A stretch of DNA of 64,000 bases, taken from contig CAWDOY010000047.1 of NCBI GenBank assembly GCA_963803975.1, positions 112,096 through 176,095 on the forward strand, in the 5' to 3' direction. This document shows positions 8,431-58,986 of this stretch, one piece after another. Below the pieces are notes generated by a model. The model saw nothing but the letters and a program-made list of their open reading frames with translations. It was not told the origin of the DNA and did no database searches. The position numbers were made by a program, and so were the translations under genes. The DNA comes from an uncultured delta proteobacterium. Lineage in GTDB: Bacteria; Desulfobacterota; WTBG01; CAIYCZ01. The first letter of the stretch is position 1; every line of letters starts with the position of its first letter.

Positions 8431-8516
8431 AAGGGTCCAGGGATTCGAGGGTTCATGGGTTCTAGTCTTTTTTAAAACTTTCACTTGGCCACTTGAATCC
8501 CAGACCACTTGACTCC
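8431..8516. repeat. Intergenic imperfect long hairpin built from degenerate GGGTTC/GGATTC hexamer repeats
   Basis: gggtccagggattcgagggttcatgggttc ... cacttgaatcccagaccacttgactcc, in the PaaK-ACT spacer. Confidence 0.4.
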
Positions 8517-8520
8517 TTTA

Positions 8521-9825
8521 TCATCCCCACTGTTTCCGGTTGTCAAGAACCCGGACCGCCTTACCTTCGCTCTTGGGCAAGGTATCCGGCTCCACCAGCT
8601 CCACGCGGGGCGTCACCAGAAGCTCAGACCTGAGATCGTCAATAATCCGCTTGCGCACGCTCTCAAGATGCTTTAAATCCCCGGTAAACATCTCTGCCCG
8701 TATCTCCGCTTTAACGGTCATAAAATCATTGTCGTCAATGGTGTCAAGAATAATCTGGAAATTGGACCCGACTTCCGGGATGGCCATGAGCGCCTTCTCA
8801 ATCTGAATGGGGAACATATTCACGCCTTTCACAATGAGCATGTCATCGGTTCTTCCTTTGATGCGGCTTATGCGGCGATGGGTTCTGCCGCAGGGACAGG
8901 GCTCCGGATAGACAAAAGCCAGATCACGGGTGCGGTAGCGCAATAGCGGCATGCCTTCACGCCGCAGGCTGGTGAATACCAGCTCCCCTTCAACACCATC
9001 CGGCACCGGCTCAAGCGTGGCAGGATCAATCACCTCCAGGATGTAGCTGTCTTCCCAGGTATGCAGGCCGTTCTGGCACGGGCACTCAAAAGCAACCCCG
9101 GGGCCATTCATCTCGGAAAGGCCGTAGGAGTTGTATGCCTTGACGCCGTATGCCTGTTCTATCCGCTGCCGTGTCTCTTCGGTATGGGGCTCAGCGCCGA
9201 TGAAGGCAATCTTAAGCTTCAGGTCTTTTTGCGGATCTATGCCCATAGTGCGGAACGTCTCAACGAGATGCAGGCCATAGCTGGGGATGATGTGGATAAC
9301 CGTGGTATCAAACTCCTGCATGAGCATGATCTGGCGCTTGCTGTTGCCGGCACCGGCAGGAATCACCATGGCGCCAAGCTTTTCCGCTCCGTAGTGAAAG
9401 CCCAGACCCCCGGTAAACAGGCCGTAGCCCATCATATTCTGGAAAACATCGCCCGGCCGCACCCCGGTCATGTACATGCAGCGGGCAACGAGTCCCGCCC
9501 ATTCATCAATATCACGGGCAGTGTGGAAAATGACGGTCGCCCGCCCGGTTGTTCCCGATGAGGAGTGCATCCTGACTATCTGTTCCCGGGGGACGGCAAG
9601 AAACCCGTAGGGGTAGTGCTCCCTGAGGGTATCCTTGGTGATGAAAGGGATGCGCCGGATATCATCCAGGCCTTTTATTGTATCGGGTGCTATCCCCTCC
9701 TGTTGAAAGAGTGATTGATAGTATGGTGAGTTTCCTGCCTGCTCCACGGTTTTCCGCAGCAGCAAGAGCTGCATCGTTTCAAGCCCGTCTCTGTCGAGCG
9801 TTTCAATATCCTTATTCCAGTACAT
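8521..9825 (-). CDS. paaK: Phenylacetate-CoA ligase (PaaK family, adenylate-forming)
   Basis: SSSGTTGRATV P-loop, YGLSE, GELVFTSL and RYRTRD motifs, C-terminal [13 protein letters not shown]. Probable start at the internal Met MYWNKDIETLDRDGLE. Confidence 0.85.
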   Translation of the reverse strand: MYWNKDIETLDRDGLETMQLLLLRKTVEQAGNSPYYQSLFQQEGIAPDTIKGLDDIRRIPFITKDTLREHYPYGFLAVPREQIVRMHSSSGTTGRATVIFHTARDIDEWAGLVARCMYMTGVRPGDVFQNMMGYGLFTGGLGFHYGAEKLGAMVIPAGAGNSKRQIMLMQEFDTTVIHIIPSYGLHLVETFRTMGIDPQKDLKLKIAFIGAEPHTEETRQRIEQAYGVKAYNSYGLSEMNGPGVAFECPCQNGLHTWEDSYILEVIDPATLEPVPDGVEGELVFTSLRREGMPLLRYRTRDLAFVYPEPCPCGRTHRRISRIKGRTDDMLIVKGVNMFPIQIEKALMAIPEVGSNFQIILDTIDDNDFMTVKAEIRAEMFTGDLKHLESVRKRIIDDLRSELLVTPRVELVEPDTLPKSEGKAVRVLDNRKQWG

Positions 9826-9932
9826 TACGCGAGACCTCTCTGTTTTCTGTTCCGCTATAAAACTCCCGGTCATTTCCGGTATTGTTAGACCATTACCGGT
9901 TTGTCGCATGCCCCCGCTGCTTGACCATACGG

Positions 9933-10505
9933 TTACAATTTATTGCGATAGAGAGCGGGGTCAACGGCCCGCACCATTGCCTGAATATCTAAACCACCGT
10001 CAAGAAAGGTGTTTATTTTTTCTGCCAGGAGCTGCGGCGCAGTCACAATATCAGAGTAGTTTACCGGAAGCATTGCAAAGCTCCGGTGGTTATGAATCCA
10101 GTGGTTGAATTTATTGAGCTGGCCTTTAAAAAGCTCGGCCAGCTTGTCATCACTCAGGTTTGCGCCTGTTTTCCCTGATCTCTGCAGCATTCTTTTTTGT
10201 GACGCAAGAACTTCGTAGATGTTTCGCTCCATGAAAATGACCCGGTATTCATATTCCAGCGGCAGGTCATATAACAGGCTGTAAATCACTTTTACCACCT
10301 TGCCCCGAGCTGTCGGCACCCATGAGGGATCGTCCCGGGTTTTTTTGACCGGCTCAAATTCGTAATATCCTTTCGGGTTATCCTCGTCCCGGGTGCGCTG
10401 GTGATCGGTGAGCACGGGGATGCCGCCCGCTTCAATCATCTGCATCATCATTGATGTGCCGGAGCGGGGAAGGCCTGATACAATCGTAACAAACGATAGA
10501 TTCAT
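9933..10505 (-). CDS. Sulfotransferase-family protein (PAPS-binding P-loop)
   Basis: 5'-PSB-like motif SGLPRSGTSMM and a 3'-PB-like region. ~190 aa, Stf0-like size. Confidence 0.65.
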   Translation of the reverse strand: MNLSFVTIVSGLPRSGTSMMMQMIEAGGIPVLTDHQRTRDEDNPKGYYEFEPVKKTRDDPSWVPTARGKVVKVIYSLLYDLPLEYEYRVIFMERNIYEVLASQKRMLQRSGKTGANLSDDKLAELFKGQLNKFNHWIHNHRSFAMLPVNYSDIVTAPQLLAEKINTFLDGGLDIQAMVRAVDPALYRNKL

Positions 10506-10592
10506 CGAAGGTTATCCTTTACTGGTTGTTTGTTTTCCTGTAGCTCCCGCGAGACTGCCAGGGGGCGTTAAACGAAAGAATTGCTGCCGCCC

Positions 10593-11441
10593 TCAGGCAG
10601 AGAGCCTGCCTTTTATAAAAGGGCTGGTAAGCAGCGCGGAGATCATTGATATGATACAGAACCATACCAGCCACCAGTCTGTTCCACAGATAAATGAATG
10701 CCGCGCCGGATAGGCAATGCTGATTGAAGCAACCGGACCCGCAGCGCTCAGCGGCTGCTCAAGGGGATGCATAATAACATCTGCCGCGTCTGTGCCCGGG
10801 CGTTTGGCGCTGACGCGCATGAAACCTGTGCCTATTGCCAGCTGCTTTACAATCTGCTGATCGCCCACCTGAAATTTGAGCAGATGGGTTCCGTCCTGTA
10901 CCGGCTGAATCGTCCAGCAGATCTCTTTCCGGCTTGCAATGCGCATGGGGCCGGCAACTATTCGCGCGCCGGGACGGGCATCAAGGGTTACGGCCGGCCA
11001 GTGTTCAGAAGCATTGTTCAGTTTCAGATTCACGACTACCGGCGCATCTCCCAACTGCAGGGGACGGGCCTGATACCACAGGCCCATCTGGGCAAGAATG
11101 AGGCTCAAGGGTATACTCATAATCAGCACCGGTATGAGTGAATATACGAACAGTTTAACGGAGCACAGCATCAGCCGTGCCTCGGACTTCATGGTAACCG
11201 CTATATTGTCCCGATAGAGGCGAACCGCCAGCAGACTGGCTTTGATATCATCAATGGTGCGGGTTAAAGCGCGCTGGTTTGAAGTGTACTTAAATATAAT
11301 AAATAACGGGATCCCGAGAACTGCCGAAATAATCGTGATTGAAAGCCAGCCCGGAACCATGGCAATCGGGGCCAATACCAGGCCGCAGACAGTGTTTGCT
11401 GCCGAGTTCACTATGAAAAGAAAATAAATCAATCCGCTCAT
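10593..11441 (-). CDS. Integral membrane protein of unknown function (4 TM helices plus a periplasmic domain)
   Basis: Hydrophobic segments at the N- and C-termini, no recognisable motif. Start overlaps the stop of the upstream small ORF (ATGA). Confidence 0.5.
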   Translation of the reverse strand: MSGLIYFLFIVNSAANTVCGLVLAPIAMVPGWLSITIISAVLGIPLFIIFKYTSNQRALTRTIDDIKASLLAVRLYRDNIAVTMKSEARLMLCSVKLFVYSLIPVLIMSIPLSLILAQMGLWYQARPLQLGDAPVVVNLKLNNASEHWPAVTLDARPGARIVAGPMRIASRKEICWTIQPVQDGTHLLKFQVGDQQIVKQLAIGTGFMRVSAKRPGTDAADVIMHPLEQPLSAAGPVASISIAYPARHSFICGTDWWLVWFCIISMISALLTSPFIKGRLSA

Positions 11442-11629
11442 TACTCAATATAGCCCAAACCGCGCAGCTGTTCTGATACTGCCTTATCATCATCAGGTGA
11501 CGCCTCAAGCAGGGCCAGCTCTTTTTCAATAACAGAGGATACAAACTCTTCAAAACTGCTGTACCCCGCAGCTTCCGCAGCCTTTTTTGCCCGCTCATAC
11601 AGCTTGCTGTCAATTTTTACTTTGGTCAT
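11441..11629 (-). CDS. Small (62 aa) ribbon-helix-helix-like protein
   Basis: MTKVKIDSKLYERAKKAAEAAGYSSFEEFV resembles CopG/ParD-type RHH N-termini. Translationally coupled to the downstream membrane protein. Confidence 0.4.
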   Translation of the reverse strand: MTKVKIDSKLYERAKKAAEAAGYSSFEEFVSSVIEKELALLEASPDDDKAVSEQLRGLGYIE

Positions 11630-11646
11630 GGCTCGCTCCCTGGCAA

Positions 11647-13677
11647 TTATACTTTAAATATATTTCGTCCGGTCATGGTCGCCGGCACCTTTACGCCGAA
11701 TGCCGTCAATATTGACGGCGCAAGGTCAGTAAGGGCCGACGCAGGGCTTATGATGTCCTGATTGCTGAACAGTATGCCCGGCAGTTCAGAGGAATCCATG
11801 CAGTGGTCAGCTGCCCAGGCTGAATCATTATCTGAAAGTATCTCTTTGGGCATATCTCCCAGGCATGATTTCCACGAGCAGCGGAAATCGCGGCTGTAGC
11901 CGATAATTAGATCCGGCGCATACTTCTGCTGCGGCCCTGAATATATCTTGTCTGCTCTGCGCGCTTTGCAGATAACGGCCCTGCCGTCGCTATCCCGCAC
12001 TGCCTCAAGCTTCTGCACAAGCTCTTCCAGAAGGGTTTCCCGCTCTGCAGCGGGGTCCACAATCCCGTACTGCTCCCGTCCTCTCTGGTTAAGATAGAGG
12101 CTGTTGATGCCAAGGCCGTAGGCCCTGGTTTTTGACCAGTCAACGTCAGAAAACAGTGACGTGCACTCAGGCGGACCCAGGTACCCGTTATCCCGCAGCC
12201 AGGTGTTCAAGTTGAACTGGCGCCTGAAGTTTGCAAATCCGTGATCACTCATGATAATGATATGCGCCGTATCACCGTACCGCTTCATGAGCGCTCCGAC
12301 CAGCGCGTCCATCCTGCCGTAGAGATCCTGCACATGGGTGAAATATTTTTGCGCTTCAGCTGCCGTGCGGTAGGGATGTTTTGCCGCGGTGTCCCACCAC
12401 AGCATGTGGGACTGCATGTCGGTACTGGAAAAATAAAAAAAGAGCAGCCCGTCATCATAATTGCGCAGCGCGTAGTCAAGCAGCTGCATGCGCTCCTGCA
12501 GCACATACTCTGCCTGCCGGACAAATTCATCATCACTGAAAACCTTGTTTGAGAGGGCCTTATGGTCTTCCTGAAAACCCGTATTGTAAAAAAGCCCCAG
12601 CTGCTGAGACAGCTCCGGAAGAAATGCGGGCGGCTCGGTAATTTTTATGGCCGGGTCGTTAGGATCAGTATTTATGGGGGTAACATACAGCCTGAAGTTG
12701 GGGGCCGCTTCCTGCAGATAAAACCGGCAGATGCCGCTTATTTTTTTGTCAGGCACCAGCGCGGGGGTTGAAAGGCTGTACTCGATTCGCACCCAGGGGC
12801 TCCATTCACCCTGCTTCATAAGTATCGTCTGCTGCTGAATTTCGACGACAGCAGCCCTGTCGTTGCGGTTGCGATGCACGATAAATTCTATGGTTGCGTC
12901 CTGCGGTTTTTTAAGAAAGGTATTTTTTGGGCCAATTAAAATAAGCGGCCGGGAGGTTTCGCCGTCAAAATATATTTTTGACCGCCTCCCTCCCCCTTCG
13001 CTGACGGGTTTCTCCGGGCCGTCTTCGGCAAAGTGCTGGTAGGTTCCATAAGAGCCCAGCAGGTCAGGGGTCCCCATTCCTGCAAGGCAGCGGTGATTCC
13101 CATGCGTTGAGGAACTGGGCGGGTAGTTTGACGGCAGATCGTAAAACGTTGAGGGAATACCCGCTGCATCAAGATACTCCCAGAACGGCACGCCTTCGCG
13201 CTTCAGCACGGTCCGGGGAGGGGTGTGATTGAAGGGCCAGAAATCAAGCTGCATTTTATGCTCGCCCAGTTCCAGGTAACCGACACCGGGCATTGTTTCA
13301 GCAGCTGCAAAAAAAGGTAACGCCTGTTTTTCCGGATTGCGGTGGATAAAATCAAATATACCGTGGGAGCCGGGGCCCGCGCCGTTGATAAAATTTGCCC
13401 AGGCAACCGGGCTTTGCGGAGGGTTGCTGGTAGCAAGCGGCCGGAATCCATTATTCTTTCTCAGCCGGTCAAGATTGGGCAGCCGGCCCTGCTCCATCAA
13501 ACGGATGCAGAGCAGCGGGTCCATGCCGTCAAAACCTATGACAATAACTTTTTTGCCCGCAACCCTGCGCGGCTTTTGTTCCTGCGCGCTTGCTGCGCGG
13601 GAGCTTATTCCAGCTGCCAGCGCTGCTGCAGCCGCGGTCGACTGTTTTATAAAATCCCGTCTGGTAAGATGTTTCAT
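11647..13677 (-). CDS. Alkaline phosphatase-superfamily protein (type I phosphodiesterase / nucleotide pyrophosphatase family) with a Tat signal
   Basis: Tat motif TRRDFIKQSTAAAAALAAG. GFDGMD metal-site motif, PISPVAW-like PQSPVAWANF, SDHGF. Paralog of 13690..15798. Confidence 0.75.
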   Translation of the reverse strand: MKHLTRRDFIKQSTAAAAALAAGISSRAASAQEQKPRRVAGKKVIVIGFDGMDPLLCIRLMEQGRLPNLDRLRKNNGFRPLATSNPPQSPVAWANFINGAGPGSHGIFDFIHRNPEKQALPFFAAAETMPGVGYLELGEHKMQLDFWPFNHTPPRTVLKREGVPFWEYLDAAGIPSTFYDLPSNYPPSSSTHGNHRCLAGMGTPDLLGSYGTYQHFAEDGPEKPVSEGGGRRSKIYFDGETSRPLILIGPKNTFLKKPQDATIEFIVHRNRNDRAAVVEIQQQTILMKQGEWSPWVRIEYSLSTPALVPDKKISGICRFYLQEAAPNFRLYVTPINTDPNDPAIKITEPPAFLPELSQQLGLFYNTGFQEDHKALSNKVFSDDEFVRQAEYVLQERMQLLDYALRNYDDGLLFFYFSSTDMQSHMLWWDTAAKHPYRTAAEAQKYFTHVQDLYGRMDALVGALMKRYGDTAHIIIMSDHGFANFRRQFNLNTWLRDNGYLGPPECTSLFSDVDWSKTRAYGLGINSLYLNQRGREQYGIVDPAAERETLLEELVQKLEAVRDSDGRAVICKARRADKIYSGPQQKYAPDLIIGYSRDFRCSWKSCLGDMPKEILSDNDSAWAADHCMDSSELPGILFSNQDIISPASALTDLAPSILTAFGVKVPATMTGRNIFKV

Positions 13678-13689
13678 AACAGTTACGTC

Positions 13690-15798
13690 CTATGAGATCG
13701 TTTTCTGCCCGGGGCCGTCCACCTGCAGGGATTTCCCGTCCATGTGGGAAGGAACCGGAACCCCGAACATTTCAAGTATGGTCGGCCCGATGTCCATGAG
13801 CCGCGGGTGCTCGTCATGAATCATGCGATTGCTGAACAGAATGCCCGGAACCAGTGATTGATCAATGCAGTGATCGCCGCTCCAGGCTTTTACATTATCG
13901 TGAACGACCCGGCCGGTTACTTCTCCAATGGCAGTTTCCCATGCCGCCCGGTAACCCGCATTATATCCGACGAGAAGGTCCGGAGCATCCTGTTTGTAGG
14001 GGCCCTGATAAATCTTCATGGCATTATAGACCCTCTTTATTACCGGCTGTCCGTGCAGGGGATCAATAAAACCTTGAAGCTTTTCGGCAAGTTCCTCCCG
14101 GAGCTGCACTGCTTCTGCCCCGGAATCTACCATCCCCTGCGCTTCTCTGCCCTTAAGGTTTAGATAGATGCCGGAAAGGCCGATGGCAAAGGCTCTGGTC
14201 TTTGACCAGTCAACACCTGCCAGATTTTTCCTGCCGCGCCCATTCTCAGTGAGCGACAGATAGCCGTTTTCCTCAAGCCACCGGTTTAAGTCTATGCCGT
14301 AGCGAAAGGAGTTAAACCCGTGATCGGAAATCACCATCAGCAGCGTGTTGCGGTCACGGCATTTTTTCATCGTCTCTCCGAGTATTCTGTCAGCATTCCG
14401 GTAAATCTTTTCAATTTCCGGTTCTGCTGCCGGCTGATAGCTGCCCCGGTGCGCGGGATGTTCGGGGTCAAGCTGGCGCCAGAAAGAGTGCTGTACGCGG
14501 TCAGTGCCGTCAAACACACACACGCACAGTCCCCGGCCGATATTGTCAAGGGCATCAAAGAACATGCTCACCCGCTCCCGGTCGGTCTGCAGGCACTGCT
14601 CAATAAACTGCTCATCACTGATGCGCTGTTCATTCAGCGCCCAGCTGTCCTCAGCCAGGCCCAGGGTTGCATACCGGCCCTGACGCTTGGCCAGGTACGT
14701 TGCATAGACCTGCGGATGGCTGATGGGCATTACCGGTTTATCCGGGTCAATGTTTATCGGCGTCACATAGAGCTTGAAATCCGGCTCAGCTGCTATCAGC
14801 AGAAACCTGCAGATGCCCCGCACCTTCATCCCCAGAGAGGCCTTGAAGGTAACCGGTATCCAGTCAGAGTATTGTCCTGCGATGAGGGCACAGGTTGCGC
14901 CATTGAGATGCAGCACCGCGCTCGTAGCATCCTGAATGGTTATTTCAAAAGGGCATTTCAGGACAACGCGTGCTTTAAGCATGGGATCGTGCGGCCCTGA
15001 CAGCTCTGCTTTGATACGGTTGCCGGTTCTCTCTACCTGATGTACTTCCCCGCCGGTATTCTCGCCCGCGCCGGCAGCGCTGGTCGTGTAAAAGGAAAAT
15101 ATTCCCTGGGATCCGCGCAGATCCGGGGTGCACATTGCCGCAAGCTGCAGGCCGTAAAATTGTTCCGGCGGAAAGGTAATGGGAACGCGGATTATGTTGC
15201 TGAAGATGCCATGCTCGCCGAGCGTCTTCCAGAAGGGAACACCTTTTCTCAGCAGACGGATATCACCGCGCCCGAGAGGAATCTGATAGCGTCCCACTGA
15301 CAGGGTGCGCAGCGGCCCCTTAATATCGGTAGAGCTCAGCTTGGGGGCATACGTTTTACGATCGCGCGTGAGAAAGTCAAAGATATTATGTTTGCCCGGA
15401 TTTACCCCGGTCTGAAATGAAGACCAGGCAACCGGTGAAATGGGGGGAATAGTGGACAGCAGCGGTTTAAAGCAGCCCTGTTCCTGCAGCTTTGCAAAAT
15501 TGGGCAATTTACCCTCATCCAGCAGTTGCGTGGTCAGCGTATAGTCCATGCCGTCAAATCCAATAACAATTGCTTTTTTGATGCGGCTGCGGGCATACAC
15601 TCTGCGGAACCGGATACTGCGCACGATCGTCCGGATCGGCCAGGTCACCAGTATTATAAGCGCAGAGACCAGTGCGGTAAATAAAACTAAAAATGAGCCG
15701 CCAACCGCAAAACCGGCACCCGGACCAATATAGGCGCTTGCAGAACCGGGAAGCAGTGCACTTAATAGTACTGCAAGAGCGACCAGCAAATATTTCAT
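13690..15798 (-). CDS. Alkaline phosphatase-superfamily protein (type I phosphodiesterase / nucleotide pyrophosphatase family), membrane-anchored paralog
   Basis: Two N-terminal TM helices, then IVIGFDGMD, PPISPVAWSSF, VISDHGF. ~35% identical to 11647..13677. Confidence 0.75.
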   Translation of the reverse strand: MKYLLVALAVLLSALLPGSASAYIGPGAGFAVGGSFLVLFTALVSALIILVTWPIRTIVRSIRFRRVYARSRIKKAIVIGFDGMDYTLTTQLLDEGKLPNFAKLQEQGCFKPLLSTIPPISPVAWSSFQTGVNPGKHNIFDFLTRDRKTYAPKLSSTDIKGPLRTLSVGRYQIPLGRGDIRLLRKGVPFWKTLGEHGIFSNIIRVPITFPPEQFYGLQLAAMCTPDLRGSQGIFSFYTTSAAGAGENTGGEVHQVERTGNRIKAELSGPHDPMLKARVVLKCPFEITIQDATSAVLHLNGATCALIAGQYSDWIPVTFKASLGMKVRGICRFLLIAAEPDFKLYVTPINIDPDKPVMPISHPQVYATYLAKRQGRYATLGLAEDSWALNEQRISDEQFIEQCLQTDRERVSMFFDALDNIGRGLCVCVFDGTDRVQHSFWRQLDPEHPAHRGSYQPAAEPEIEKIYRNADRILGETMKKCRDRNTLLMVISDHGFNSFRYGIDLNRWLEENGYLSLTENGRGRKNLAGVDWSKTRAFAIGLSGIYLNLKGREAQGMVDSGAEAVQLREELAEKLQGFIDPLHGQPVIKRVYNAMKIYQGPYKQDAPDLLVGYNAGYRAAWETAIGEVTGRVVHDNVKAWSGDHCIDQSLVPGILFSNRMIHDEHPRLMDIGPTILEMFGVPVPSHMDGKSLQVDGPGQKTIS

Positions 15799-15824
15799 GC
15801 GTAAGCCAACATAATTATAACTGT

Positions 15825-17126
15825 TTACAAAACTCTCTTATCAATAATCTTTCCGGATTGCTGCAGGTTCTCTTCGAGTGTTTTCCGCTCCACCAGCTTT
15901 ACCTCCACTCTGAGGCCGAGGCGGCGCATAAGGGTGCTGCGTGTCTGCTCCAGCAGCGAGCGCTGCCGCTTCATCTCATCAAAGAAGATGTTCTCTGAAA
16001 CTGCCACATGGACCTCCAGGGTGTCGCGATAGTCGTCCCTGGTCACCACAATCTGATAGTGCGGCTCGCATCCTTCTATTTCCCTGAGCACCTTTTCAAT
16101 CTGCCCGGGGACAACATGGATCCCTTTTACCACGATGATGTCATCCACCCGCTCCATGACCCGCTCCATTCTCACCAGCGTCCGGCCGCAGGTACACGGG
16201 CTGAAATCAAGGCTGGTTATATCCCCGGTGCGATAGCGCAGCAGGGGAAATGCTTCGCGGGTGAGGGTCGTCAGCACCAGCTCGCCGGTCTGGCCGGGCG
16301 GCAGCGGGGTGCCGGTCTGCGGGTCAATGATTTCCGGCAGAAAATGGTCTTCAGCGAGATGCAGTCCGCTTTTCGCGTCACATTCGCCGGCGATGCCGGG
16401 GCCTGACAGCTCGCTCACGCCGTAATTATCATAGACAGCGATAAAGAGCCGCTCTTCTACTTCCCGGCGCGTCTTTTCCGACCATGGCTCAGCCCCGAAC
16501 AGGCCTTTCCTGAGGCTTAAGGTTTTCGGGTCGATGCCCAGTTTCCGCAGCCGGTCTGCAAAAATCAGAGCAAAGGACGGCGTTGCCACCAGCACCGTGG
16601 TCCGGTAGTCCTGCATGATCCTGATCTGGCGATCGATATTTTCGCTGGATGCGGGAATAACCGACGCGCCGATGCACTCGGCGCCATGGTGCAGGCCGAA
16701 AGCGCCGGTATAAAGACCGTAGTGAAAGGAGATCTGCATGACATCGTCGTGGGTCACCCCGCCCGCGGTCAGAAACCGGGCGACCTGCGTGCCCCAGTTC
16801 TTCAGGTCATTGCGGGTGTAGCCGATGACGGTCGGCGTATCGATGGTCTCGGTGGTGGTATGAATACGCACCACCTCGCGCAGCGGAACCGCAAACAGGC
16901 CGTAGGGATAATTGCTCTGCAGGTCCTGTTTGGTAGTGAGCGGCAGGCGCTTGAATTCTTCCAGGGTTGAGATGTCTTCAGGGACGATTTTTTTCTCGTC
17001 AAAAATTTTCCGGTAGAATGATACGTTCTTATAGGCGCGGTTAAGGCTTGACTGCAGCCGCTCTAACTGGAGCTGCTGCAGCTCCTCGCGGGGACAACAC
17101 TCAATCTTTTCTTCCCAGATAGCCAT
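15825..17126 (-). CDS. PaaK-family adenylate-forming ligase (phenylacetate-CoA ligase / F390-synthetase-like) with a non-canonical P-loop
   Basis: PaaK-like along its length (YGVSELSGPG, GELVLTTL, RYRTGD, RVDDIIVVKGIHV). The AMP-binding loop reads IHTTTETIDTPTVIGYT instead of [10 protein letters not shown]. Confidence 0.75.
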   Translation of the reverse strand: MAIWEEKIECCPREELQQLQLERLQSSLNRAYKNVSFYRKIFDEKKIVPEDISTLEEFKRLPLTTKQDLQSNYPYGLFAVPLREVVRIHTTTETIDTPTVIGYTRNDLKNWGTQVARFLTAGGVTHDDVMQISFHYGLYTGAFGLHHGAECIGASVIPASSENIDRQIRIMQDYRTTVLVATPSFALIFADRLRKLGIDPKTLSLRKGLFGAEPWSEKTRREVEERLFIAVYDNYGVSELSGPGIAGECDAKSGLHLAEDHFLPEIIDPQTGTPLPPGQTGELVLTTLTREAFPLLRYRTGDITSLDFSPCTCGRTLVRMERVMERVDDIIVVKGIHVVPGQIEKVLREIEGCEPHYQIVVTRDDYRDTLEVHVAVSENIFFDEMKRQRSLLEQTRSTLMRRLGLRVEVKLVERKTLEENLQQSGKIIDKRVL

Positions 17127-17135
17127 GTGCTTCTC

Positions 17136-17873: not shown

Positions 17874-17878
17874 CGTTT

Positions 17879-18646: not shown

Positions 18647-18652
18647 GGTTCC

Positions 18653-19627
18653 TTAAGCCTTGCTTCGTCCGCGCCGTATAGTGCTGTATGCCATGGCAAA
18701 CCCCTGGCTGAGCCCTCCCGGCAAAAACATGATAATAAACAGGAGAATGAATCCATAGACAATTACATCGTAATCCTCAAACACGCGCAGATATTCCGGC
18801 AGTATGGTGAGCAGCGCTGCTCCCAGGATGCAGCCCCAGATATTGGCCATGCCTCCCACCACCACCATCATAACCAGCAGGATGGAAAACATGATATTGC
18901 ACGTGGTCGGGCTGATAAAGGTTACGAAATGCACATACAGGCTTCCTGAAACCGAGGCAACCAGCGCGCTCAGGATAAACACCTGAACCTTTAACTGCGC
19001 AGCGTTGACGCCCATGGCAGTGGCGGCAAGCTCACTGCCGTGAATAGACCGTAATGCCCTGCCGACGCGTGAGTTAATCAGATTGTTAATCAGTATAAAA
19101 ATGATGATAAAAACAATCCACACAAAATAATAATATTTCATGTCTGAATCAAGGACAAGCGAGCCGATCTGAATCCGGGGAATCTCGCCGAACCCTGACG
19201 GCCCGCCGGTCAGGTCCACCGCCGCATTGAGGAAAATATTGACAATCTCGCCGAACGCGAGCGTCGCCATGGCCAGATAGTGCCCCTTTAACCGCAATGA
19301 CGGGACGCCGATCAGGTACGCCACCAGTGCGGTCAGGACGAGCGCCGCGATAAAAGCAACAATGATGGGAACGTGGTAGTAAACCGTGAGTATGCCGGAG
19401 GTGTACGCGCCGATGCCGAAAAACGCCGCGTGCCCGAGAGATATCTGGCCGGTGTAGCCCATGAGCAGGTTAAGCCCCATGGTGGTAATGCTGTATATCC
19501 CGATAAAGACCAGAATGCTCAGATAGTAGGGGTTCTTAATAAAAAGGGGCAGCAGAAAAATGACCACTGCAAAAATCAAAGTTGCGCTGTGTCTGTTGAG
19601 CTTCATAATATCAAAAACAGGGTTCAA
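18653..19627 (-). CDS. livM: Branched-chain amino acid ABC transporter permease LivM
   Basis: Multi-TM permease with a GHAAFFGIGAY-type motif. Probable true start at the internal ATG (MKLNRHSATLIF), ~19604. Confidence 0.8.
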   Translation of the reverse strand: MNPVFDIMKLNRHSATLIFAVVIFLLPLFIKNPYYLSILVFIGIYSITTMGLNLLMGYTGQISLGHAAFFGIGAYTSGILTVYYHVPIIVAFIAALVLTALVAYLIGVPSLRLKGHYLAMATLAFGEIVNIFLNAAVDLTGGPSGFGEIPRIQIGSLVLDSDMKYYYFVWIVFIIIFILINNLINSRVGRALRSIHGSELAATAMGVNAAQLKVQVFILSALVASVSGSLYVHFVTFISPTTCNIMFSILLVMMVVVGGMANIWGCILGAALLTILPEYLRVFEDYDVIVYGFILLFIIMFLPGGLSQGFAMAYSTIRRGRSKA

Positions 19628-19708
19628 GGGCTCAAGTGATCAAGGATTCAAGTGCAATGCGTTTACAAAAATCGCTTGAACCCTCGAACCCTGGAATCCT
19701 TGAACCCT
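19618..19708. repeat. Intergenic imperfect long hairpin built from degenerate TCAAGG/GTTCAAG repeats
   Basis: ggttcaagggctcaagtgatcaaggattcaagtgc ... gcttgaaccctcgaaccctggaatccttgaaccctc, between livH and livM. Confidence 0.45.
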
Positions 19709-19712
19709 CTTG

Positions 19713-20612
19713 TTAAAATTCTTTCAGCTTGCTTGCCTCGCTCACGCCGAAAATGCCGCTCGGCTTTACAAACAGAACCAGCAGCAGCACTAAAAGCGCT
19801 ATGGCGTCTTTGTAGCCAGAGGAAATGAGCCCTGCCCCCAGTGATTCAAGAATTCCAATGAGCAGCCCCGCGACTACCGCCCCGACGCCGTTTCCCAGTC
19901 CCCCGAGCACGGCTGCCGCAAATCCTTTCAATGCCAGGATGGCTCCCCGGTCATATTCCATAAGGGCAACCGGCGTTATGATAATCCCGGCAGTGGCTCC
20001 CAGCGCCGCGCTCAGGGCAAAGGATAAGAGCACCATTTTTTTAACACTGATGCCCACCAGGCTTGCCGCGGTGGGGTTTACGGCGCAGGCGCGCATCGCT
20101 TTCCCCAGCATGGTAAAGTTGAAAAATCCCGCCAGAATGATGACCACCACAAACATGATCCCCAGAATCCAGAGGGTTTGCGGCAGGATGGTTGCGCCGA
20201 ACAGATAAAACGGCTCTTCCCCTGAAAAGTGCGGCAGGGTATAGGTTTCCTTTCCCCAGAACAGCATGGCCGAGCCTTTCATAATGATTGAGCCGGCAAG
20301 CGTTATCATGATCAGGATCAGCACCGACGGCCGCTTGAGCGGATAGATGGCAAGACGCTCAAACAGTGCGCCGATGAGTGTTACCATGATGACAGAAAGC
20401 GCAAACGCCGCGATCATGGGAATTTTCAGCACCGTGGTAAACCAGACCATGAACATGCCGCCAAGCATGACAAATTCACCCTGGGCAAAATTTATAATGC
20501 CGGTGGCATTGTAAATAATATTAAACCCCAGCGCTACCATTCCGTAGATGGTGCCTATGGTTATACCGGTCAATAGAAACTGCAGTATCTGACTGAAAAG
20601 CGACATGCACAA
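19713..20612 (-). CDS. livH: Branched-chain amino acid ABC transporter permease LivH
   Basis: ~300-aa multi-TM permease of the LivH type (GxxGxxG-rich C-terminus). Confidence 0.8.
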   Translation of the reverse strand: MCMSLFSQILQFLLTGITIGTIYGMVALGFNIIYNATGIINFAQGEFVMLGGMFMVWFTTVLKIPMIAAFALSVIMVTLIGALFERLAIYPLKRPSVLILIMITLAGSIIMKGSAMLFWGKETYTLPHFSGEEPFYLFGATILPQTLWILGIMFVVVIILAGFFNFTMLGKAMRACAVNPTAASLVGISVKKMVLLSFALSAALGATAGIIITPVALMEYDRGAILALKGFAAAVLGGLGNGVGAVVAGLLIGILESLGAGLISSGYKDAIALLVLLLVLFVKPSGIFGVSEASKLKEF

Positions 20613-20741
20613 CTACTCCACCCTGAGAAACAGATACCAGTCACCGGGGCTCCCCGCGTCCCTGCGGACAGGTGCCCCGCCAGTCGGAAGACGTCTAAAA
20701 ATCTGCACGATAGTAACTCATTATGACGTCTGTGTAAATTA

Positions 20742-20786
20742 CAAAAAAAGAGGCTAAACCCTAAATATAAAACCGGTGTAGCCTCT
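20742..20786 (-). terminator. Hairpin plus T-run between livK and livH (partial terminator or attenuator)
   Basis: Minus strand AGAGGCTA-n22-TAGCCTCT followed by TTTTTTT. Confidence 0.5.
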
Positions 20787-20857
20787 CATATGCTGCAGTC
20801 TAATGTTCACGGTTCAGGTATCGTGAAGCTTTAAACCTTAAACGTGAAACCTGCACA

Positions 20858-21999
20858 TTACTGTGCCGGCAAAAACTTTCCGCCCTTTATGGTGATCATT
20901 TCAAACGCATCTTTGGTGAGACCGGTATGATCTTCGGGTGAGTAAGTTGAAAACACCGCCGGTGCCGACAAAGTTTTTAGTGTTTTCAATATAGTCCCGG
21001 ATCTTTGCCCGGTCCGGCCCGACTGCGCGCAGGGCGGCGATCACCAGGGTAAGCGCATCATAGGCATGCCCGCCAAAGGTGCTCACATCGTTTTAAACTT
21101 TTCCTCATAGTCCTTCTTGTATTTCTCCAGCAAAGCGCTCTCTGCGGGTGGTCAGCCGGCAGCGAGTCCACCACCAGCAGCCTCCCGGCCGGGAACAGCA
21201 CCCCGTCTGCTGCATCGCCGGCAGCTCGCGCATATTTGATATTGCCAAACCCGTGGCTCTGAAACAGCGGTATGGTCATCCCGAGCTGTTTCCTGTTTTT
21301 GATAATGGTTGCCTGACCGGGCACAATGGACCAGTTGACAATTGCCTGAGCATCGGTGCCCTTGATCTTGGTCAGCTGGGCCGTCATATCGGTATCTTTC
21401 GGCCCATAGGTTTCATCCGCGACAATGGTAATGCCGTACTTTGGAGCAAGCAGGGTGAGCTGCTTTCTTCCTTCCATGCCGAACCCCTCGGTGGCGGTAA
21501 TGATAGCAACCTTGGAGATATTCATTTCTTTCATCTTCTCATAAATCCTGATTGCTGCATCGCTGTCTTTCTGCGGGGTTTTGAAGACCCACTTTCGCAC
21601 CGGGTTAACGATCGCCTCCGCAGCCGCGCATGATACGAGCGGCACCTGCGCCTTTTCTACGATGGGTATGACCGCCATGGTTGTCCCGCTCCTGGTGGGG
21701 CCGACAATGGCCAGCACGTTGTCTCTGTTGATGAGCTTCTGGACCGCCATGACAGCCTTTGCTTCTTCTCCCACCGTGTCTTCAATGATGATCTCCAGCG
21801 GGTGCCCGTTGATGCCGCCCTGGGCATTGACCTGCTCCTGGATCATCTTAACGGTGTTGCGCTCAGGTTCCCCAAGCCATGCCGCAGGACCGGTTATGGC
21901 GAATACCGCCCCGACCTTGTACGGCTCCGCTGCCATAACAGAACCGGCAGCGCCGAGTATCCATACCCCTAAGACAATAACCCCAAAAACTTTTTTCAT
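20858..21999 (-). CDS. livK: Branched-chain/aromatic amino acid ABC transporter substrate-binding protein (LivK-like), copy 1. Two frameshifts near the 3' end.
   Basis: Signal peptide MKKVFGVIVLGVWILGAAGSVMA. ~75% identical to copy 2. The C-terminal 60 aa (STFGGHAYDA...TGGVFN / YSPEDHTGLTKDAFEMITIKGGKFLPAQ) lie in two other frames. Confidence 0.7.
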
Positions 22000-22111
22000 T
22001 GTACCCTCCTCCTCGCGTGTTGTTGTTTAAGTATCCCCTCATGTATGTAAAACCGGCCGTCAGTCTTCAGCACAAACCCTGCTTCAAAGCCGGCTGCTAA
22101 GCACTGCAGGC

Positions 22112-23251
22112 TTATTTAACCAGCGCAAATGCGCCGCCTTTTACCGTGTACATCTCCAGCGCATCCTTATCAAGTCCCACATGATTGTCGGCAGAATAAT
22201 TAAAAACGCCGCCGGTGCCGACAAAATTTTTCGTGTTTTCGATATAGTCTCTGATCTTTGCCCGGTCCGGCCCCACAGCGCGAAGCGCTGCAATAACCAG
22301 GTGTATTGCATCATAGGCATGGCCGCCAAAGGTGCTCACGTCCGACTTAAAGCGGCTTTCATAATCTTTCTTGTATGTGGCAAGAAGCGCCTTCTGCGGA
22401 TGGTCTGCCGGCAGCGCTTCAACCATGAGCAGCCTCAGGGCCGGGAACATGAGCCCGTCTGCTGAATCGCCTGCGGCCCGGGCATATTTTATGTTGCCGA
22501 ATCCCGGGCTCTGGAACAGCGGTATGCTCATCCCGAGCTGCCGCCGGTTTTTAATCACCGTGGTCTGGCCGGGAACAATTGACCAGTTCACCAGCGCCTG
22601 AGCATCGGTGCCCTTGATTTTGGTGAGCTGTGCCGTCATGTCGGTATCCTTGGGCCCGTAGGTCTCATCTGCCGCAATCGTAATGCCGTACTCCGGAGCA
22701 AATCGCTTGAGCTGCTTGCGGCCTTCCATGCCATAGCCGTCAGTGCTGGAAATAACCGCCACGCTGGTGATGTTCATCTCTTTCAGCTTATCGTAGATCT
22801 TGAGCACGCCGTGGCTGTCATTCTGGGCGGTCTTGAATACCCATTTCCTGACCGGCCGTACTATTTCCTCTGCTGAAGCACACGAAATCAGCGGCACCTG
22901 CGCTTTCTCCACAATCGGGATGACCGCCATGGTGGTGCCGCTGCGTGTCGGCCCGACAATGGCGAGCACGTTGTCCTTATTAATGAGCTTATTTACCGCA
23001 AGTACGGTCCGGGTTTCCTCGCCCACCGTATCTTCCACAATGATCTGCAAGGGGTGACCGTTAATGCCGCCCCGGGCATTGATCTCTTCTTCAACCATTC
23101 TAACCGTATTGCGCTCGGGCTCCCCGAGCCATGAAGCCGGCCCGGTTATGGCGAATACGGCGCCGACGACGTAGGGCTCTGCTGCAAAAGAAACTGGTGA
23201 TAGAGCGGTGAGCACCGCCAGTGCTGCAAACAATAAAAATAGCTTTTTCAT
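22112..23251 (-). CDS. livK: Branched-chain/aromatic amino acid ABC transporter substrate-binding protein (LivK-like), copy 2
   Basis: Starts at the internal Met MKKLFLLFAALAVLTALSPVSFA. Periplasmic binding protein type I fold signature. Confidence 0.85.
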   Translation of the reverse strand: MKKLFLLFAALAVLTALSPVSFAAEPYVVGAVFAITGPASWLGEPERNTVRMVEEEINARGGINGHPLQIIVEDTVGEETRTVLAVNKLINKDNVLAIVGPTRSGTTMAVIPIVEKAQVPLISCASAEEIVRPVRKWVFKTAQNDSHGVLKIYDKLKEMNITSVAVISSTDGYGMEGRKQLKRFAPEYGITIAADETYGPKDTDMTAQLTKIKGTDAQALVNWSIVPGQTTVIKNRRQLGMSIPLFQSPGFGNIKYARAAGDSADGLMFPALRLLMVEALPADHPQKALLATYKKDYESRFKSDVSTFGGHAYDAIHLVIAALRAVGPDRAKIRDYIENTKNFVGTGGVFNYSADNHVGLDKDALEMYTVKGGAFALVK

Positions 23252-23371
23252 AGTACCCCCTGTTCTTGAATGAGTCGTGATTGCAGCGGCCCCACAAAAC
23301 CCCCGGCCCCTGGGGATACACCATAAACAACGGGTCACGGGCCACGGGTCACGAGGCACGTCGTTCACTCC

Positions 23372-23803
23372 CTACAGGCAGTATACTTTTTTTCCCTCCA
23401 GCACGGTAATACCTTTGCTGGTGAGCGTTTTAATGGCTTTATCGATTTCGTCAAAGCGGAAAATGATGACCGCATTGTCAGAGCTGCGCTCGACAAATGC
23501 ATACATATATTCCACGTTGGTGCCTTCCTTCTGCAGAAGGTCAAGGATGTGCGCCAGTCCGCCCGGCCGGTCATTCACCTCTACTGCCACAACCTGGGTC
23601 ATGCTGACGGTAAACTGGTTGGACTTGAGCACGCCAATTGCCTTAGCGCTGTCATTTACAATCAGGCGCAGGATGCCAAAGTCTGACGTATCGGCAAGGG
23701 AGAGCGCCCTGATATTTATTCCTGCTGCGCCCAGAACCCTGGTGACTTCAGCAAGACGGCCTGATTTGTTCTCTAAGAAGATGGATATTTGATCTACTTT
23801 CAT
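23372..23803 (-). CDS. ACT-domain protein (PaaK-associated)
   Basis: [35 protein letters not shown]... Two ACT halves. Immediately downstream of paaK. Confidence 0.8.
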
Positions 23804-23820
23804 AAGTAATTCCTCCCGTT

Positions 23821-23899
23821 ATGGAGTTACGGAGTGCAGGAGTTGCGGAGTTAAAAATATAAACTCCAAAACTCTCCAACTCCACAACTCATCAACTCG
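23821..23899. repeat. Intergenic imperfect long hairpin built from degenerate GGAGTT repeats
   Basis: ggagttacggagtgcaggagttgcggagtt-aaaaatataa-actccaaaactctccaactccacaactcatcaactc. Confidence 0.5.
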
Positions 23900-25203
23900 T
23901 TATATTTTCCTCTTGTCAATCACCCGTTTGGCTTTGCCCTCGCTGCGCTGGATGGTCTTCGGCTCTACCAGCTTACACTTACAGGTAACGCCAAACATCT
24001 CTTTTATATCCTTTTCAATCCGCTTTTCCAGCCGCTCCAGCTGCTTGATCTCATCTGAGAATACTTTTTCATTCACTTCCACCTGCACCTCGAGCGTATC
24101 AAGATTGCCTTCCCGGTCCACGATGAGCAGGTAGTGCGGCTCCACCCCTTCAATCTGCATGAGAACGCTCTCAATCTGCGAAGGAAATACATTAACGCCC
24201 CTGATGATCAGCATGTCATCGGTTCTGCCGGTGATCCGCTGCATGCGCACAAAAGTTCTGCCGCATTTACATATTTCCGGGTAGAGAACTGATATGTCCC
24301 GGGTGCGGTAGCGTATCACCGGGAAGGCCTCTTTGGTGATCGAGGTAAATACCAGTTCGCCCTTCTCGCCGTAGGGCAGCGCCTTACCGGTAGCAGGATC
24401 TATAATTTCAGGAATGAAGTGGTCTTCAAAAACGTGCAGCCCCTTCTTGGCTTCCAAACATTCGCTGGAGACGCCCGGGCCGATCACTTCGGTCAGCCCG
24501 AAAATATCGATGGCGTCAATGTTAAATTTCTTTTCTATCTGCTCGCGCATGTTCTCTGACCAGGGCTCTGCGCCAAAACAGCCCACCCGCAGCTTGAAAT
24601 CCTTTGCCGGGTTTAATCCCATTTCTTCCGCCACCTCACCAAGATGCAGTGCATAGGAGGGGGTGCAGGTGATAGCGGTCGGCCCGAAATCCTGCATGAT
24701 GATAATCTGCCGCTTGGTATTGCCCCCGGATATCGGTATAACCGACGCGCCCACCTTTTCCGCACCGTAGTGCAGCCCGAGCCCGCCGGTGAACAGGCCG
24801 TAGCCGTAGGCATTATGCACGATGTCGCCCCGGTGCACACCGGCACAGAACAGGGTCCGCGCTATGAGCTCAGCCCAGGTATCAATATCGCGCTTGGTAT
24901 AGCCGACCACGATCGGTTTTCCCGTGGTTCCCGAAGAAGCGTGAACCCGCACCACCTGTTCCATGGGAACGCTGAACAGGCCAAAGGGATAATTGTCCCG
25001 CAGGTCATTCTTGATGGTGAAGGGCAGAAGCTGCAGATCCTTCAGGTTTTTACGTGTGACGGCTTGACGCCCAGCTCATCAAACTTCTTCTTGTAAAAAG
25101 GTACTGTCTCGTACACCCGCTCAACGGTTGCTTTAAGCCGTTTGAGCTGCAAAGCCTCAAGTGCTTCGCGCGGCAGGGTTTCAAATTCTTCATTCCAGAT
25201 CAT
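23900..25203 (-). CDS. paaK: Phenylacetate-CoA ligase (PaaK). Frameshift in an A-run near codon 53.
   Basis: [41 protein letters not shown]. The N-terminal 53 aa ([51 protein letters not shown]) are in a different frame. The shift is in gtaaaaacctg. GGGAGG RBS. Confidence 0.8.
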
Positions 25204-25299
25204 AATAGACCTCCCGTTAAAAGTTTAAAGTCTAAACCCGACGTTACTAAACGCTAAATAAAAACTTTAGAATTGAAACATATTACGAATTTCAGGATT
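25204..25299. repeat. Intergenic degenerate TAAAC/GTTTA repeat tract between iorB and paaK
   Basis: gtttaaagtctaaacccgacgttactaaacgctaaataaaaactttagaattgaaac. Confidence 0.3.
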
Positions 25300-32601: not shown

Positions 32602-32744
32602 GGCTACAATCCATCCTAACCCGGACAAGCCGGAACCAAGGTTAACCGCAAAGATAAAAAAGAACAAAGAAGATTGAATTGGAACTCAGGAACTCACAAA
32701 GGTAAAAACAAATCCTGATTTCTTGAGTTCCAGATGCGGCTCAG

Positions 32745-39807: not shown

Positions 39808-39994
39808 ATCAAGGGGTAGGTGAACCCGCTGCGCCAGAGCGGCAGCGCGGCGAGCCGTCGCGTCGGTGCAAGAGGTTAAAAGGTCAATAGGTTACGAGGT
39901 GAAAAGGTAAAAAGATGAAAAGACAAAGAGGTGCAACAGGTTCACTGTAATCCTACACCTTTTAGCCTTTTAACCTCTGTAGCTGTTAACCTGT

Positions 39995-58907: not shown

Positions 58908-58924
58908 TGGTAGCCATCAGCGCA

Positions 58925-58970
58925 CAGCTATCAGCATTCAGCTAGTTTTTTAGCTGACAACTGATAGCTG
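58925..58970. terminator. Bidirectional hairpin between convergent genes
   Basis: CAGCTATCAG...AGCTAgttttttAGCT...CTGATAGCTG. Confidence 0.45.
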
Positions 58971-58986
58971 ACGGCTGACTGCTTCA

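Follow-up and report, generated by a model that had tools for sequence, protein, structure and literature searches.

The window, meaning the whole 64,000-nucleotide stretch of DNA analysed here, carries seven intergenic elements in which tandem degenerate repeats are followed by their complement, and these repeat-built hairpins are real and non-random. On balance, we read them as STRR-type repeat hairpins: short, non-coding, fast-evolving DNA, not tuned regulators. An earlier sequence-only reading had placed such hairpins in four spacers between 8431 and 25299; the family extends further, to the last three elements listed here.

8431..8516, minus strand: element A, separating the second paaK gene (8521-9909) from an ACT gene (7921-8349); GGRTTCAN-class hairpin, period about 8, about four units per arm, AT-rich loop
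19618..19708, minus strand: element B, livH/livM spacer; TRF period 8
23821..23899, minus strand: element C, first paaK/ACT spacer; TRF period 8
25204..25299, minus strand: element D, iorB/paaK spacer; AT-rich GTTTNAR/YTTAAAC class
32680..32732, minus strand: short element of the same kind in the co-directional spacer that follows a ParA-like gene; GGAACUCA twice per arm
39869..39997, no strand assigned: long element, AAAAGGUN class, period 8, about six units per arm
58909..58983, no strand assigned: period-7 element, NNTCAGC / GCTGANN class

Genomic position of the elements

All seven window elements begin just past a stop codon and fall within the part of the window, roughly 18%, that is free of long ORFs. 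Elements A to D sit in a co-directional gene row, iorAB-paaK-ACT-livKKHMGF-paaK-...-paaK-ACT, confirming the earlier placement in transcribed intercistronic spacers. The host gene content is of anaerobe type (iorAB, paaK, liv). Element A starts about 5 nt past the end of paaK, counted from its stop codon, and UUUUUGAUAA comes after it. Element B, which separates two permease genes, spans the gap from the livH stop codon (19713-19715) to 11 nt short of the livM ATG (19606), with four degenerate copies of GGGUUCAA in its 5' arm, a 23-nt loop and four copies of CUUGAACC in its 3' arm. Element C, a NNNGAGTT-class hairpin with four to five units per arm and the loop UAUAUUUUU, adjoins the stop codon of paaK (23900-23902) and runs to just 5' of the ACT ribosome-binding site, GGGAGG. 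Two elements stand between convergent genes, outside any operon: 39869-39997 fills the gap between the stops of a DAHP-synthase-family gene (plus strand) and an M48 peptidase gene (minus strand), and 58909-58983 fills the gap between stop codons at 58907 and 58987.

Across all element-bearing spacers, 19 were co-directional, 3 convergent and none divergent, against a background of 295, 65 and 81, and nearly all elements begin 0-19 nt after a stop codon. The elements are thus located almost only in transcribed, untranslated gaps just past stop codons.

The repeat unit and its classes

The arms had been described as hexamer repeats. TRF and autocorrelation instead gave period 7 or 8 in every element, and the proposed 6-mers turned out to be the conserved cores of a longer unit of 8 nt (7 in some elements), made up of a 5-nt core and two to three free positions. 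TRF returned periods of 8 and 16 at the hairpins; autocorrelation found five period-7 and five period-8 segments, compared with about 0.1 in shuffles, and only two period-6 segments, neither at these hairpins. Period 8 holds for five of the seven window elements and period 7 for 58909-58983; the orthologue of element D in the sister species L003 was also scored as period 7. At least five unit classes occur within the 64 kb. They are not distributed one per hairpin as first supposed, since GGRTTCAN units build both the 8431 and the 19618 hairpins. Within one class only the 5-nt core is common, and loops and free positions differ.

Folding strength and strand

Three of the four hairpins first proposed fold far better than shuffled sequences. 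The sense (minus-strand) RNA of 19612-19712 reached -44.6 kcal/mol (z -6.5; 0 of 200 shuffles as stable), that of 23815-23899 reached -32.8 kcal/mol (z -4.8; 0 of 200) and that of 8425-8520 reached -29.0 kcal/mol (z -3.0; 1 of 200); these hairpins belong to the window's most stable local folds. The claim failed for 25204-25299, where the fold was not significant (z -1.1; 29 of 200 shuffles as stable). The orthologous spacer holds the same GTTTNAR/YTTAAAC hairpin in clearer form in L003 (z -4.8) and L008 (z -2.6): element D is decayed in this window. Among the additional elements, 32680-32732 folds at -19.2 kcal/mol (z -3.0), 39869-39997 at -35.5 kcal/mol on the minus strand (z -3.8), and 58909-58983, with helices of 5-10 bp separated by 3x3 internal loops, at -40.1 and -43.3 kcal/mol (z -7.2 and -7.6). 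Arrays paired with their reverse complement thus form hairpins with element z values from -3 to -7.6. The suggestion that mismatches are largely G-U-compatible was overstated, as 3-6 in about 30 pairs are G-U and internal loops account for most mismatches.

A scan for this architecture, which the sequence-only reading had proposed, recovered 22 period-7/8 repeat-arm hairpins in 0.95 Mb, compared with 0-2 in shuffles; each other period pair yielded 7 in the same pipeline.

The G-rich arm lies 5' in 20 of 23 elements (20 versus 3), a strong bias, and this G-first polarity is seen whichever strand is transcribed. Folding slightly favours the sense strand (12 of 17 elements; Wilcoxon p 0.07), which also has more G-U pairs than the antisense strand (52 versus 32, p 0.04). 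The sense advantage and the G-first polarity indicate that the elements are not structureless junk, and either could stem from selection on RNA.

Terminator signals and RNA families

The hairpins had been separated from ordinary terminators for want of a T-run. That description is true of elements C and D, which lack a U-run and lie directly before a ribosome-binding site in the gene row, and untrue of A and B, which are followed by UUUUUGAUA (a U5 tract); this tract is not conserved in L003 or L007. The distinction itself stands: a consensus scan called no intrinsic terminator at the four sites named, and ordinary T-run terminators occur elsewhere in the window, at 38585-38660, 27776-27803 and 424-466. 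In Rfam 15, no family reached the gathering threshold for the hairpins, and only a tRNA passed; at E<1 the only hits were sub-threshold resemblances to miRNA precursors, at 19619-19709 and 23823-23891.

Variation among strains and relatives

Strains that are 96-99% identical carry another unit class, or half a hairpin, in the same spacers. The first paaK/ACT spacer holds a GAGTT-class hairpin in the window, L008, L009 and L024, with element C identical in the last three, which are independent assemblies; between the same flanks, L003, L025 and L007 (96.5% identical overall) hold a TCAGC-class hairpin, the class also found at 58909-58983. In the second paaK/ACT spacer, most same-species contigs have element A, of the GGRTTCAN class, and L018 and L020 have a TGCGGAA-class hairpin instead, although their ACT protein is identical. 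The livH/livM spacer of L013 is only 45 nt long and retains part of the element B 3' arm, whereas in L003 a TGCGGAA hairpin is nested inside element B. L003 also has an extra TACGAAA hairpin at the site of a 12-nt gap in the window.

In a survey of the paaK/ACT spacer covering the 71 of 80 metagenome loci with a locatable upstream ORF end, most relatives had a spacer of only 9-25 nt, containing the ribosome-binding site, and scattered lineages had hairpins of at least six different unit classes. Element density is limited by lineage: it is about 7 per 64 kb in the window and 4 per 17 kb in L003; two Desulfobacterales-like loci (about 52% identity, 20 kb each) contained no such elements. Differences among the TCAGC alleles of L003, L007 and L025 break pairs, a pattern of decay and not of compensation. 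The GGRTTCAN unit recurs in L095 and L097, lineages only 67-68% identical in ACT, a recurrence that neutral in-situ slippage could hardly account for on its own.

Taken together, the swaps, halves, nesting and short spacers of relatives demonstrate recent, fast-turning-over insertions: the hairpins were inserted into spacers that were ancestrally very short, and their gain, truncation, nesting and exchange have taken place within the time over which strains diverge.

Origin and function of the elements

As STRR-type repeat hairpins, the elements may turn over by slippage of tandem units and deletion across the hairpin, with unit classes copied or recombined from elsewhere. A self-folding insert after a stop codon would do little harm, as it would disrupt neither promoter nor coding sequence; once folded, the hairpin would again place the ribosome-binding site that follows it close to the stop codon that precedes it, and translational coupling would thereby be preserved. 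In the transcript, the elements would form stable stem-loops with periodic internal loops, which, by analogy with REP and cyanobacterial STRR hairpins, could block 3'-to-5' exonucleases or serve as processing sites. In this way they might influence mRNA decay or processing, as a side-effect and not as a conserved tuned function.

The sequence-only reading had regarded the elements as tuning expression within the operon, that is, as dedicated cis-acting RNA elements selected as processing, stability or partial-termination sites that set the expression of operon segments. Their placement past stop codons and ahead of ribosome-binding sites, their absence from divergent promoter spacers, their strong folds, the modest advantage of the sense strand, the polarity seen in transcripts of either strand and the U5 tracts after A and B are all consistent with this, but we consider it unlikely. 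Presence, absence and class change among near-identical strains, and most relatives run the same operon with the minimal spacer. Unequal expression is unexpected for two permease genes, so element B counts against tuning, as do the two elements between convergent genes; moreover, the U-runs are not conserved, no terminator is called, and orthologues lose pairs without compensation. A narrower proposal, that these are unusual U-tract-poor intrinsic terminators or attenuators, draws on the stable stems, the same U5 tracts and the two elements at convergent gene ends, where terminators are expected; it is very improbable, given the ordinary GC-stem and T-run terminators at other gene ends, the negative scan, and the position of C and D within the gene row.

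Classical non-autonomous mobile elements (MITE or REPIN), each class a family that a transposase or RAYT from another part of the genome moves in trans, would account for one class appearing at unrelated spacers (GGRTTCAN at 8431 and 19618; TCAGC at 58909 and in the L007 spacer; TGCGGAA in both L003 and L018), for nesting and for insertion into ancestrally short spacers. Flanking 6-bp direct repeats at A (TTATCA, p ~0.05) and C (CGTTAT, p ~0.09) also fit. However, such repeats at p<0.1 occur in only 2 of 23 elements, with no systematic target-site duplication in this set, and the 8-bp GGGCCCAT match at a short element in L053 is its own palindromic repeat. Same-class copies share the degenerate unit only, neither termini nor loops; no transposase-like or RAYT domain was present in the approximately 40 ORFs scanned in the 64-kb window, and there was no BLAST match in 72,556 plasmids. 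Mobilisation of this kind therefore seems improbable. The frameshift-like breaks in paaK, iorA and livK of the window, absent from sister contigs, raised the question of long-read assembly or sequencing artefacts; this explanation is refuted by the same hairpins recurring, base for base or nearly so, in independent assemblies of different samples and assemblers (ENA contigs, MEGAHIT k141 contigs, JGI Ga0209253 and Logan), and its probability is close to nil.

A bolder and decidedly doubtful reading is that a dedicated, unknown process other than a classical transposase writes and rewrites periodic repeat hairpins of 7-8-nt units immediately past stop codons and is common to distant phyla: Cyanobacteria, Beggiatoaceae, some Bacteroidetes and this Desulfobacterota-like clade. 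Its signatures would be the recurring cores GAGT, GATTC and CTGA, class swaps between near-identical strains and strand-independent G-first polarity; fold-back or template-switch synthesis, or an RNA-linked step, might be involved.

STRR-like architecture outside cyanobacteria widens the phenomenon: this uncultured clade of anaerobic deltaproteobacteria carries about 100 such elements per Mb, with both 8-nt and 7-nt units. The phenomenon also becomes tractable, as public metagenomes contain many natural strains of one species in which elements can be seen directly, at known sites, to be gained, lost, swapped or nested. Annotators should not take intra-operon repeat hairpins for conserved regulators without comparative or expression evidence.

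Comparison with known systems

Like the REP, BIME and REPIN sequences of Enterobacteria and Pseudomonas, the window elements are extragenic hairpin repeats of transcribed, co-directional or convergent but not divergent spacers, and their presence varies between strains. REP elements stabilise upstream mRNA. REPINs are mobile DNA (PMC3116915). REP sequences share a consensus of about 20-35 nt across the genome and are accompanied by a cognate RAYT, whereas here each class has only a 5-nt core, the arms are internally periodic and the ORFs scanned in the 64-kb window include no RAYT. Elhai et al. (2008, Genome Res 18:1484) reportedly described, in Nostoc punctiforme, small dispersed repeats and MITEs lying within heptamer tracts and nested in one another, said to have defined 21-27-nt family sequences; the elements described here are likewise very small, hairpin-forming inserts, with nesting in L003.

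TAACTGA heptamers occur in marine Beggiatoaceae and in some Cyanobacteria and Bacteroidetes, with a patchy phylogenetic distribution; the arrays are intergenic, mostly just upstream of start codons and often without a canonical ribosome-binding site (PMC4679880). The period-7 class of the window (TAGCTGA, CAACTGA) is one base away from this unit. TAACTGA is, however, one fixed heptamer in nearly all direct repeats (169 sets, one inverted), unlike the many unit classes in hairpin-forming inverted arrays of the window.

The closest known counterparts are the STRR hairpins of cyanobacteria, familiar since about 1990, for which, to our knowledge, no origin or function has been accepted. Heptamer STRR hairpins lie between hupS and hupL in Nostocales (PMC2670836); a role in transcript stability or translational coupling has been proposed (PMC2670836, PMC2408588). 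The hupS-hupL hairpins of Nostoc/Anabaena share with ours the degenerate tandem units followed by their complement, the hairpin in an intercistronic spacer and the many unit sequences in one genome. Here the host is an uncultured deltaproteobacterium and not a filamentous or heterocystous cyanobacterium, the commonest period is 8 nt, with 7 also present, where STRRs are described as 7-mers, and strain-level swapping is documented.

A close parallel is the P6b stem of the Nostoc tRNA-Leu(UAA) group I intron, built of TDNGATT (Class I) or NNTGAGT (Class II) units, with repeated independent class replacement and side stem-loop insertions (PMC4476775). In both systems the stem consists of degenerate repeat units that combine a conserved core with two to three free positions, unrelated unit classes replace one another at one site, length changes by whole units, and further stem-loops are inserted at the side or nested within (PMC4476775); the unit NNNGAGTT of element C resembles the P6b NNTGAGT. 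The Nostoc stem is a single locus inside a self-splicing intron, whereas the elements described here occupy many mRNA-spacer loci and include 8-nt units.

Structure and repeat unit of the spacer hairpins

The spacers holding elements A (8431-8516), B (19618-19708), C (23821-23899) and D (25204-25299), each read from the sequence alone as an intercistronic hairpin, were read directly and folded on both strands, the minus strand being the sense strand of the gene row; 200 shuffles served as the reference.

Folding of the four spacers
19612-19712, minus strand, livH/livM spacer (element B): −44.6 kcal/mol, z −6.5
23815-23899, minus strand, first paaK/ACT spacer (element C): −32.8 kcal/mol, z −4.8
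8425-8520, minus strand, second paaK/ACT spacer (element A): −29.0 kcal/mol, z −3.0
25200-25299, minus strand, iorB/paaK spacer (element D): −17.6 kcal/mol, z −1.1, 29 of 200 shuffles equal or better

Judged against shuffles, the proposed hairpins stand in A, B and C (3/4) and fall away in the window's D. In the sister species L003 (z −4.8) and strain L008 (z −2.6) the orthologue of D forms a clear hairpin, and the window copy is a decayed one. Folding of the entire window in sliding 100-nt segments placed repeat hairpins among its most extreme outliers, the remaining outliers being ordinary T-run terminators. The original observation was largely right; several of its details need revision.

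The unit, described as a hexamer, has a period of 8 nt, or 7 in some elements: Tandem Repeats Finder reported periods 8 and 16 at 19619-19709 and 23818-23898, and an autocorrelation scan of the window gave five period-7 and five period-8 segments against about 0.1 expected, with only two period-6 segments, neither at a hairpin. Each unit combines a conserved core of about 5 nt with 2-3 free positions, so that the folded arms consist of 5-10-bp helices separated by small internal loops, a pattern clearest at 58905-58987. A and B are both built on a GGRTTCAN unit, contrary to the idea of a different hexamer in every hairpin, and G-U pairs, thought to account for most mismatches, make up the smaller share of the imperfections (3-6 in about 30 pairs). 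An Rfam search of the elements returned no family. The likeness of GGGTTCRAG to a tRNA T-arm or to the anticodon stem of the local tRNA-Pro was judged superficial. Three heptamer tandem arrays with no obvious inverted partner, TTGCCTA x5 (61954-61988), CAGTGACCCGTGGC x3 (4432-4472) and TTAAACC x3 (20831-20852), are direct-repeat relatives of the hairpin arms and recall STRR (short tandemly repeated repetitive sequences) and TAACTGA arrays.

A T-run had been reported absent; elements A and B both carry UUUUUGAUA directly 3'. A terminator scan called no terminator after either, and the U-run is not kept in L003 or in strain L007. Because canonical intrinsic terminators lie at gene ends, the organism does use them, and the terminator reading of the repeat hairpins was rejected on this ground together with the missing calls.

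Intrinsic terminators at gene ends (GC stem and T-run, some bidirectional)
38585-38660, intrinsic terminator
27776-27803, intrinsic terminator
424-466, intrinsic terminator
509-562, intrinsic terminator

Immediately 3' of hairpin A, some 50 nt ahead of the ACT gene, is the best sense-strand promoter-like match of the operon (8402-8429, minus strand, TTGATA-16-TATAGT), whose score of 10/12 is shared by three other sites of the scan; its TTGATA belongs to the 3' flank UUUUUGAUA common to A and B. The livK/livK spacer (22000-22115), considered as a conventional attenuator, proved unstructured (z +0.7).

Gene context and further elements

An inverted-repeat search and a fold-plus-periodicity scan identified three further elements, all outside the range first described; an exact 5-mer cluster scan for the unit-loop-reverse complement architecture found three hairpins only, was too strict and was superseded by the fold-plus-periodicity scan.

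Further repeat hairpins
32680-32732, GGAACUCA units
39869-39997, AAAAGGUN units
58909-58983, NNTCAGC units, period 7

Long ORFs occupy about 82% of the window and all seven elements (7/7) lie outside them, occupying 7 of the roughly 42 spacers that are 40 nt or longer. The minus-strand row begins with iorA/iorB-like oxidoreductase subunits, followed by a paaK-like ligase and ACT-pair protein, two periplasmic binding proteins, two BPD_transp_2 permeases, two ABC ATPases, a second paaK-like ligase, two phosphodiesterase-family proteins and others, and ends with a third paaK-like ligase and a second ACT protein. Within this row the elements start 0-5 nt past the upstream stop codon and end immediately upstream of the next gene's ribosome-binding site or start codon. 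The elements at 39869-39997 and 58909-58983 each take up precisely the interval between two convergent stop codons.

Frameshift-like breaks interrupt paaK (23900-25203), iorA (25874-27365) and the second binding-protein gene (20613-21999), all intact in the sister contigs L008 and L009 (434 aa and 379 aa); long-read indel errors are the probable cause, true pseudogenes a lesser possibility. What looks like a 445-nt spacer (20613-21057) is the tail of the second binding-protein gene. GC content is about 42% in positions 1-7800, versus about 52% elsewhere, in a stretch that comes after a tRNA-Pro(GGG) gene (340-416) and contains several paralogous ORFs with near-identical segments in common (e.g. 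about 605-700, 2041-2165 and 2821-2946); one ORF matches DUF1565/PMP-repeat weakly. The stretch is possibly an island that entered at the tRNA.

In 0.95 Mb comprising the window and related loci, 22 hairpins with period-7/8 repeat arms were counted, against 0-2 in shuffles; the period pairs 5/6, 9/10 and 11/12 gave 7 each. No long ORF spans 18 of the 22. With window elements A and D added, the 24 elements occupy 19 co-directional, 3 convergent and 0 divergent spacers and 2 contig edges (background spacers: 295 co-directional, 65 convergent, 81 divergent); this sample is biased to the queried spacer, without which the divergent count is still 0 of about 14. Target-site duplications were not systematic, 6-bp flanking direct repeats occurring only at A and C. 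No repeat hairpins turned up in two distant Desulfobacterales-like loci (20 kb apiece), and BLAST of two elements against plasmids gave no matches.

Turnover between strains and species

A livM search of a genome collection retrieved L003 (livM 89%, DNA identity about 91-94% to the window) and more distant relatives, and exact-protein look-ups yielded many same-species contigs, which were then aligned; their origin in independent samples and assemblers ruled out an assembly artefact. The first paaK/ACT spacer carries a GAGTT-class hairpin in the window, L008, L009 and L024 and a TCAGC-class hairpin in L007, L003 and L025, with identical flanks, and L007 is 96.5% identical to the window across 21 kb. 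The second paaK/ACT spacer holds a GGRTTCAN hairpin in most contigs; in L018 and L020, which encode an identical ACT protein, it is shorter and contains a TGCGGAA-class hairpin. The livH/livM spacer is reduced in L013 to 45 nt with 3'-arm remnants; that of L003 (L003 9840-9988) nests a TGCGGAA-class hairpin within an outer GGRTTCAN hairpin (−56.9 kcal/mol, z −4.3). L003 also has an extra TACGAAA-unit hairpin (near 15950-16058) between two phosphodiesterase genes whose spacing in the window is just 12 nt (13678-13689).

A wider survey covered 80 metagenome loci with ACT homologues at 65-100% identity, the upstream ORF end being locatable in 71. The paaK/ACT spacer measures 9-25 nt in most of the 71, with only a ribosome-binding site inside, and hairpins of the GAGTT, TCAGC, GGGATTCA/GGAGTTAA, GTGAATG, TAATTAG and GGRTTCAAG classes appear in scattered lineages. 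These short spacers, together with the class differences between strains, indicate that the hairpins were inserted into a spacer that was short in the ancestor; their turnover takes place on the time-scale at which strains diverge.

Differences among the TCAGC alleles (L003, L007, L025) are mostly pair-breaking rather than compensatory, and an attempted covariation analysis of element A met little variation (95% column identity across strains). Exact records of the proteins flanking the elements at 32680, 39869 and 58909, sought for strain variants, were found for none of four proteins. The apex of the L007 TCAGC-class hairpin (L007 5705-5800) reads TGTGAGAGTTCAGGA, and the window GAGTT-class hairpin (23821-23899) has TTGGAGAGTTTTGGA at a similar position (11/15 identical); this likeness may record how a new unit emerged at the apex and then spread, or may be chance.

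Strand preference and arm polarity

A sense strand could be assigned to 17 non-orthologous elements. In 12 of them the sense RNA had the more stable fold (mean −2.5 kcal/mol, Wilcoxon p 0.07), and across the set it contained more G-U pairs (52 versus 32 antisense, p 0.04). This hints weakly that the transcript matters; transcription-linked C-to-T change on the non-template strand would be equally expected to produce the same advantage.

The order of the arms is a stronger regularity, and an unexpected one: of 23 non-orthologous elements, 20 have the G/purine-rich arm on the 5' side and the C-rich arm on the 3' side (p about 5e-4; about 13 versus 2 when tallied per unit class). The polarity is seen at window elements 8431, 19618, 23821, 32680 and 39869 and at loci L003, L018, L026, L027, L030, L046, L049, L050, L067, L071, L073, L087 and L095, the exceptions being the TCAGC class and L094. 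Since an inverted repeat has one arm order on both strands, the polarity is independent of transcription direction, and the arms do not reveal how a unit class is oriented with respect to transcription.

Nature of the elements and comparison with known systems

Taken together, the repeat hairpins are non-essential, rapidly turning-over insertions. The proposal that they tune expression within the operon is unsupported as a conserved function: the hairpins turn over between strains. They may be tolerated where a self-folding insert would bring stop codon and ribosome-binding site close again, disrupting nothing. By analogy, the hairpins in the transcript may, as a side-effect, hinder decay by 3' exonucleases or invite processing. 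Classes may arise and replace one another by slippage, by deletion across the hairpin, by copying from other loci or by true mobility.

This kind of element is already known, though unexplained; what is new here is a host from a new phylum, octamer besides heptamer units, documented strain-level swaps and the polarity bias. The hairpins resemble REP/BIME elements in distribution, being strain-variable and located in transcribed rather than divergent spacers, but differ in having no REP-type consensus. The TAACTGA repeats of Beggiatoaceae are a related, mostly direct-repeat phenomenon, described in a paper that makes no mention of Deltaproteobacteria (PMC4679880). In anatomy and dynamics, the elements match the STRR-type hairpins of heterocystous cyanobacteria. 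For the 7-bp repeat hairpins between hupS and hupL, the function is "still not known", and transcript stability or translational coupling has been suggested (PMC2670836; see also PMC2408588). Closest of all comes the P6b stem in the tRNA-Leu intron of Nostoc: its units are always TDNGATT or NNTGAGT, one class has replaced the other several times independently, and unit-wise indels and side stem-loop insertions occur (PMC4476775).
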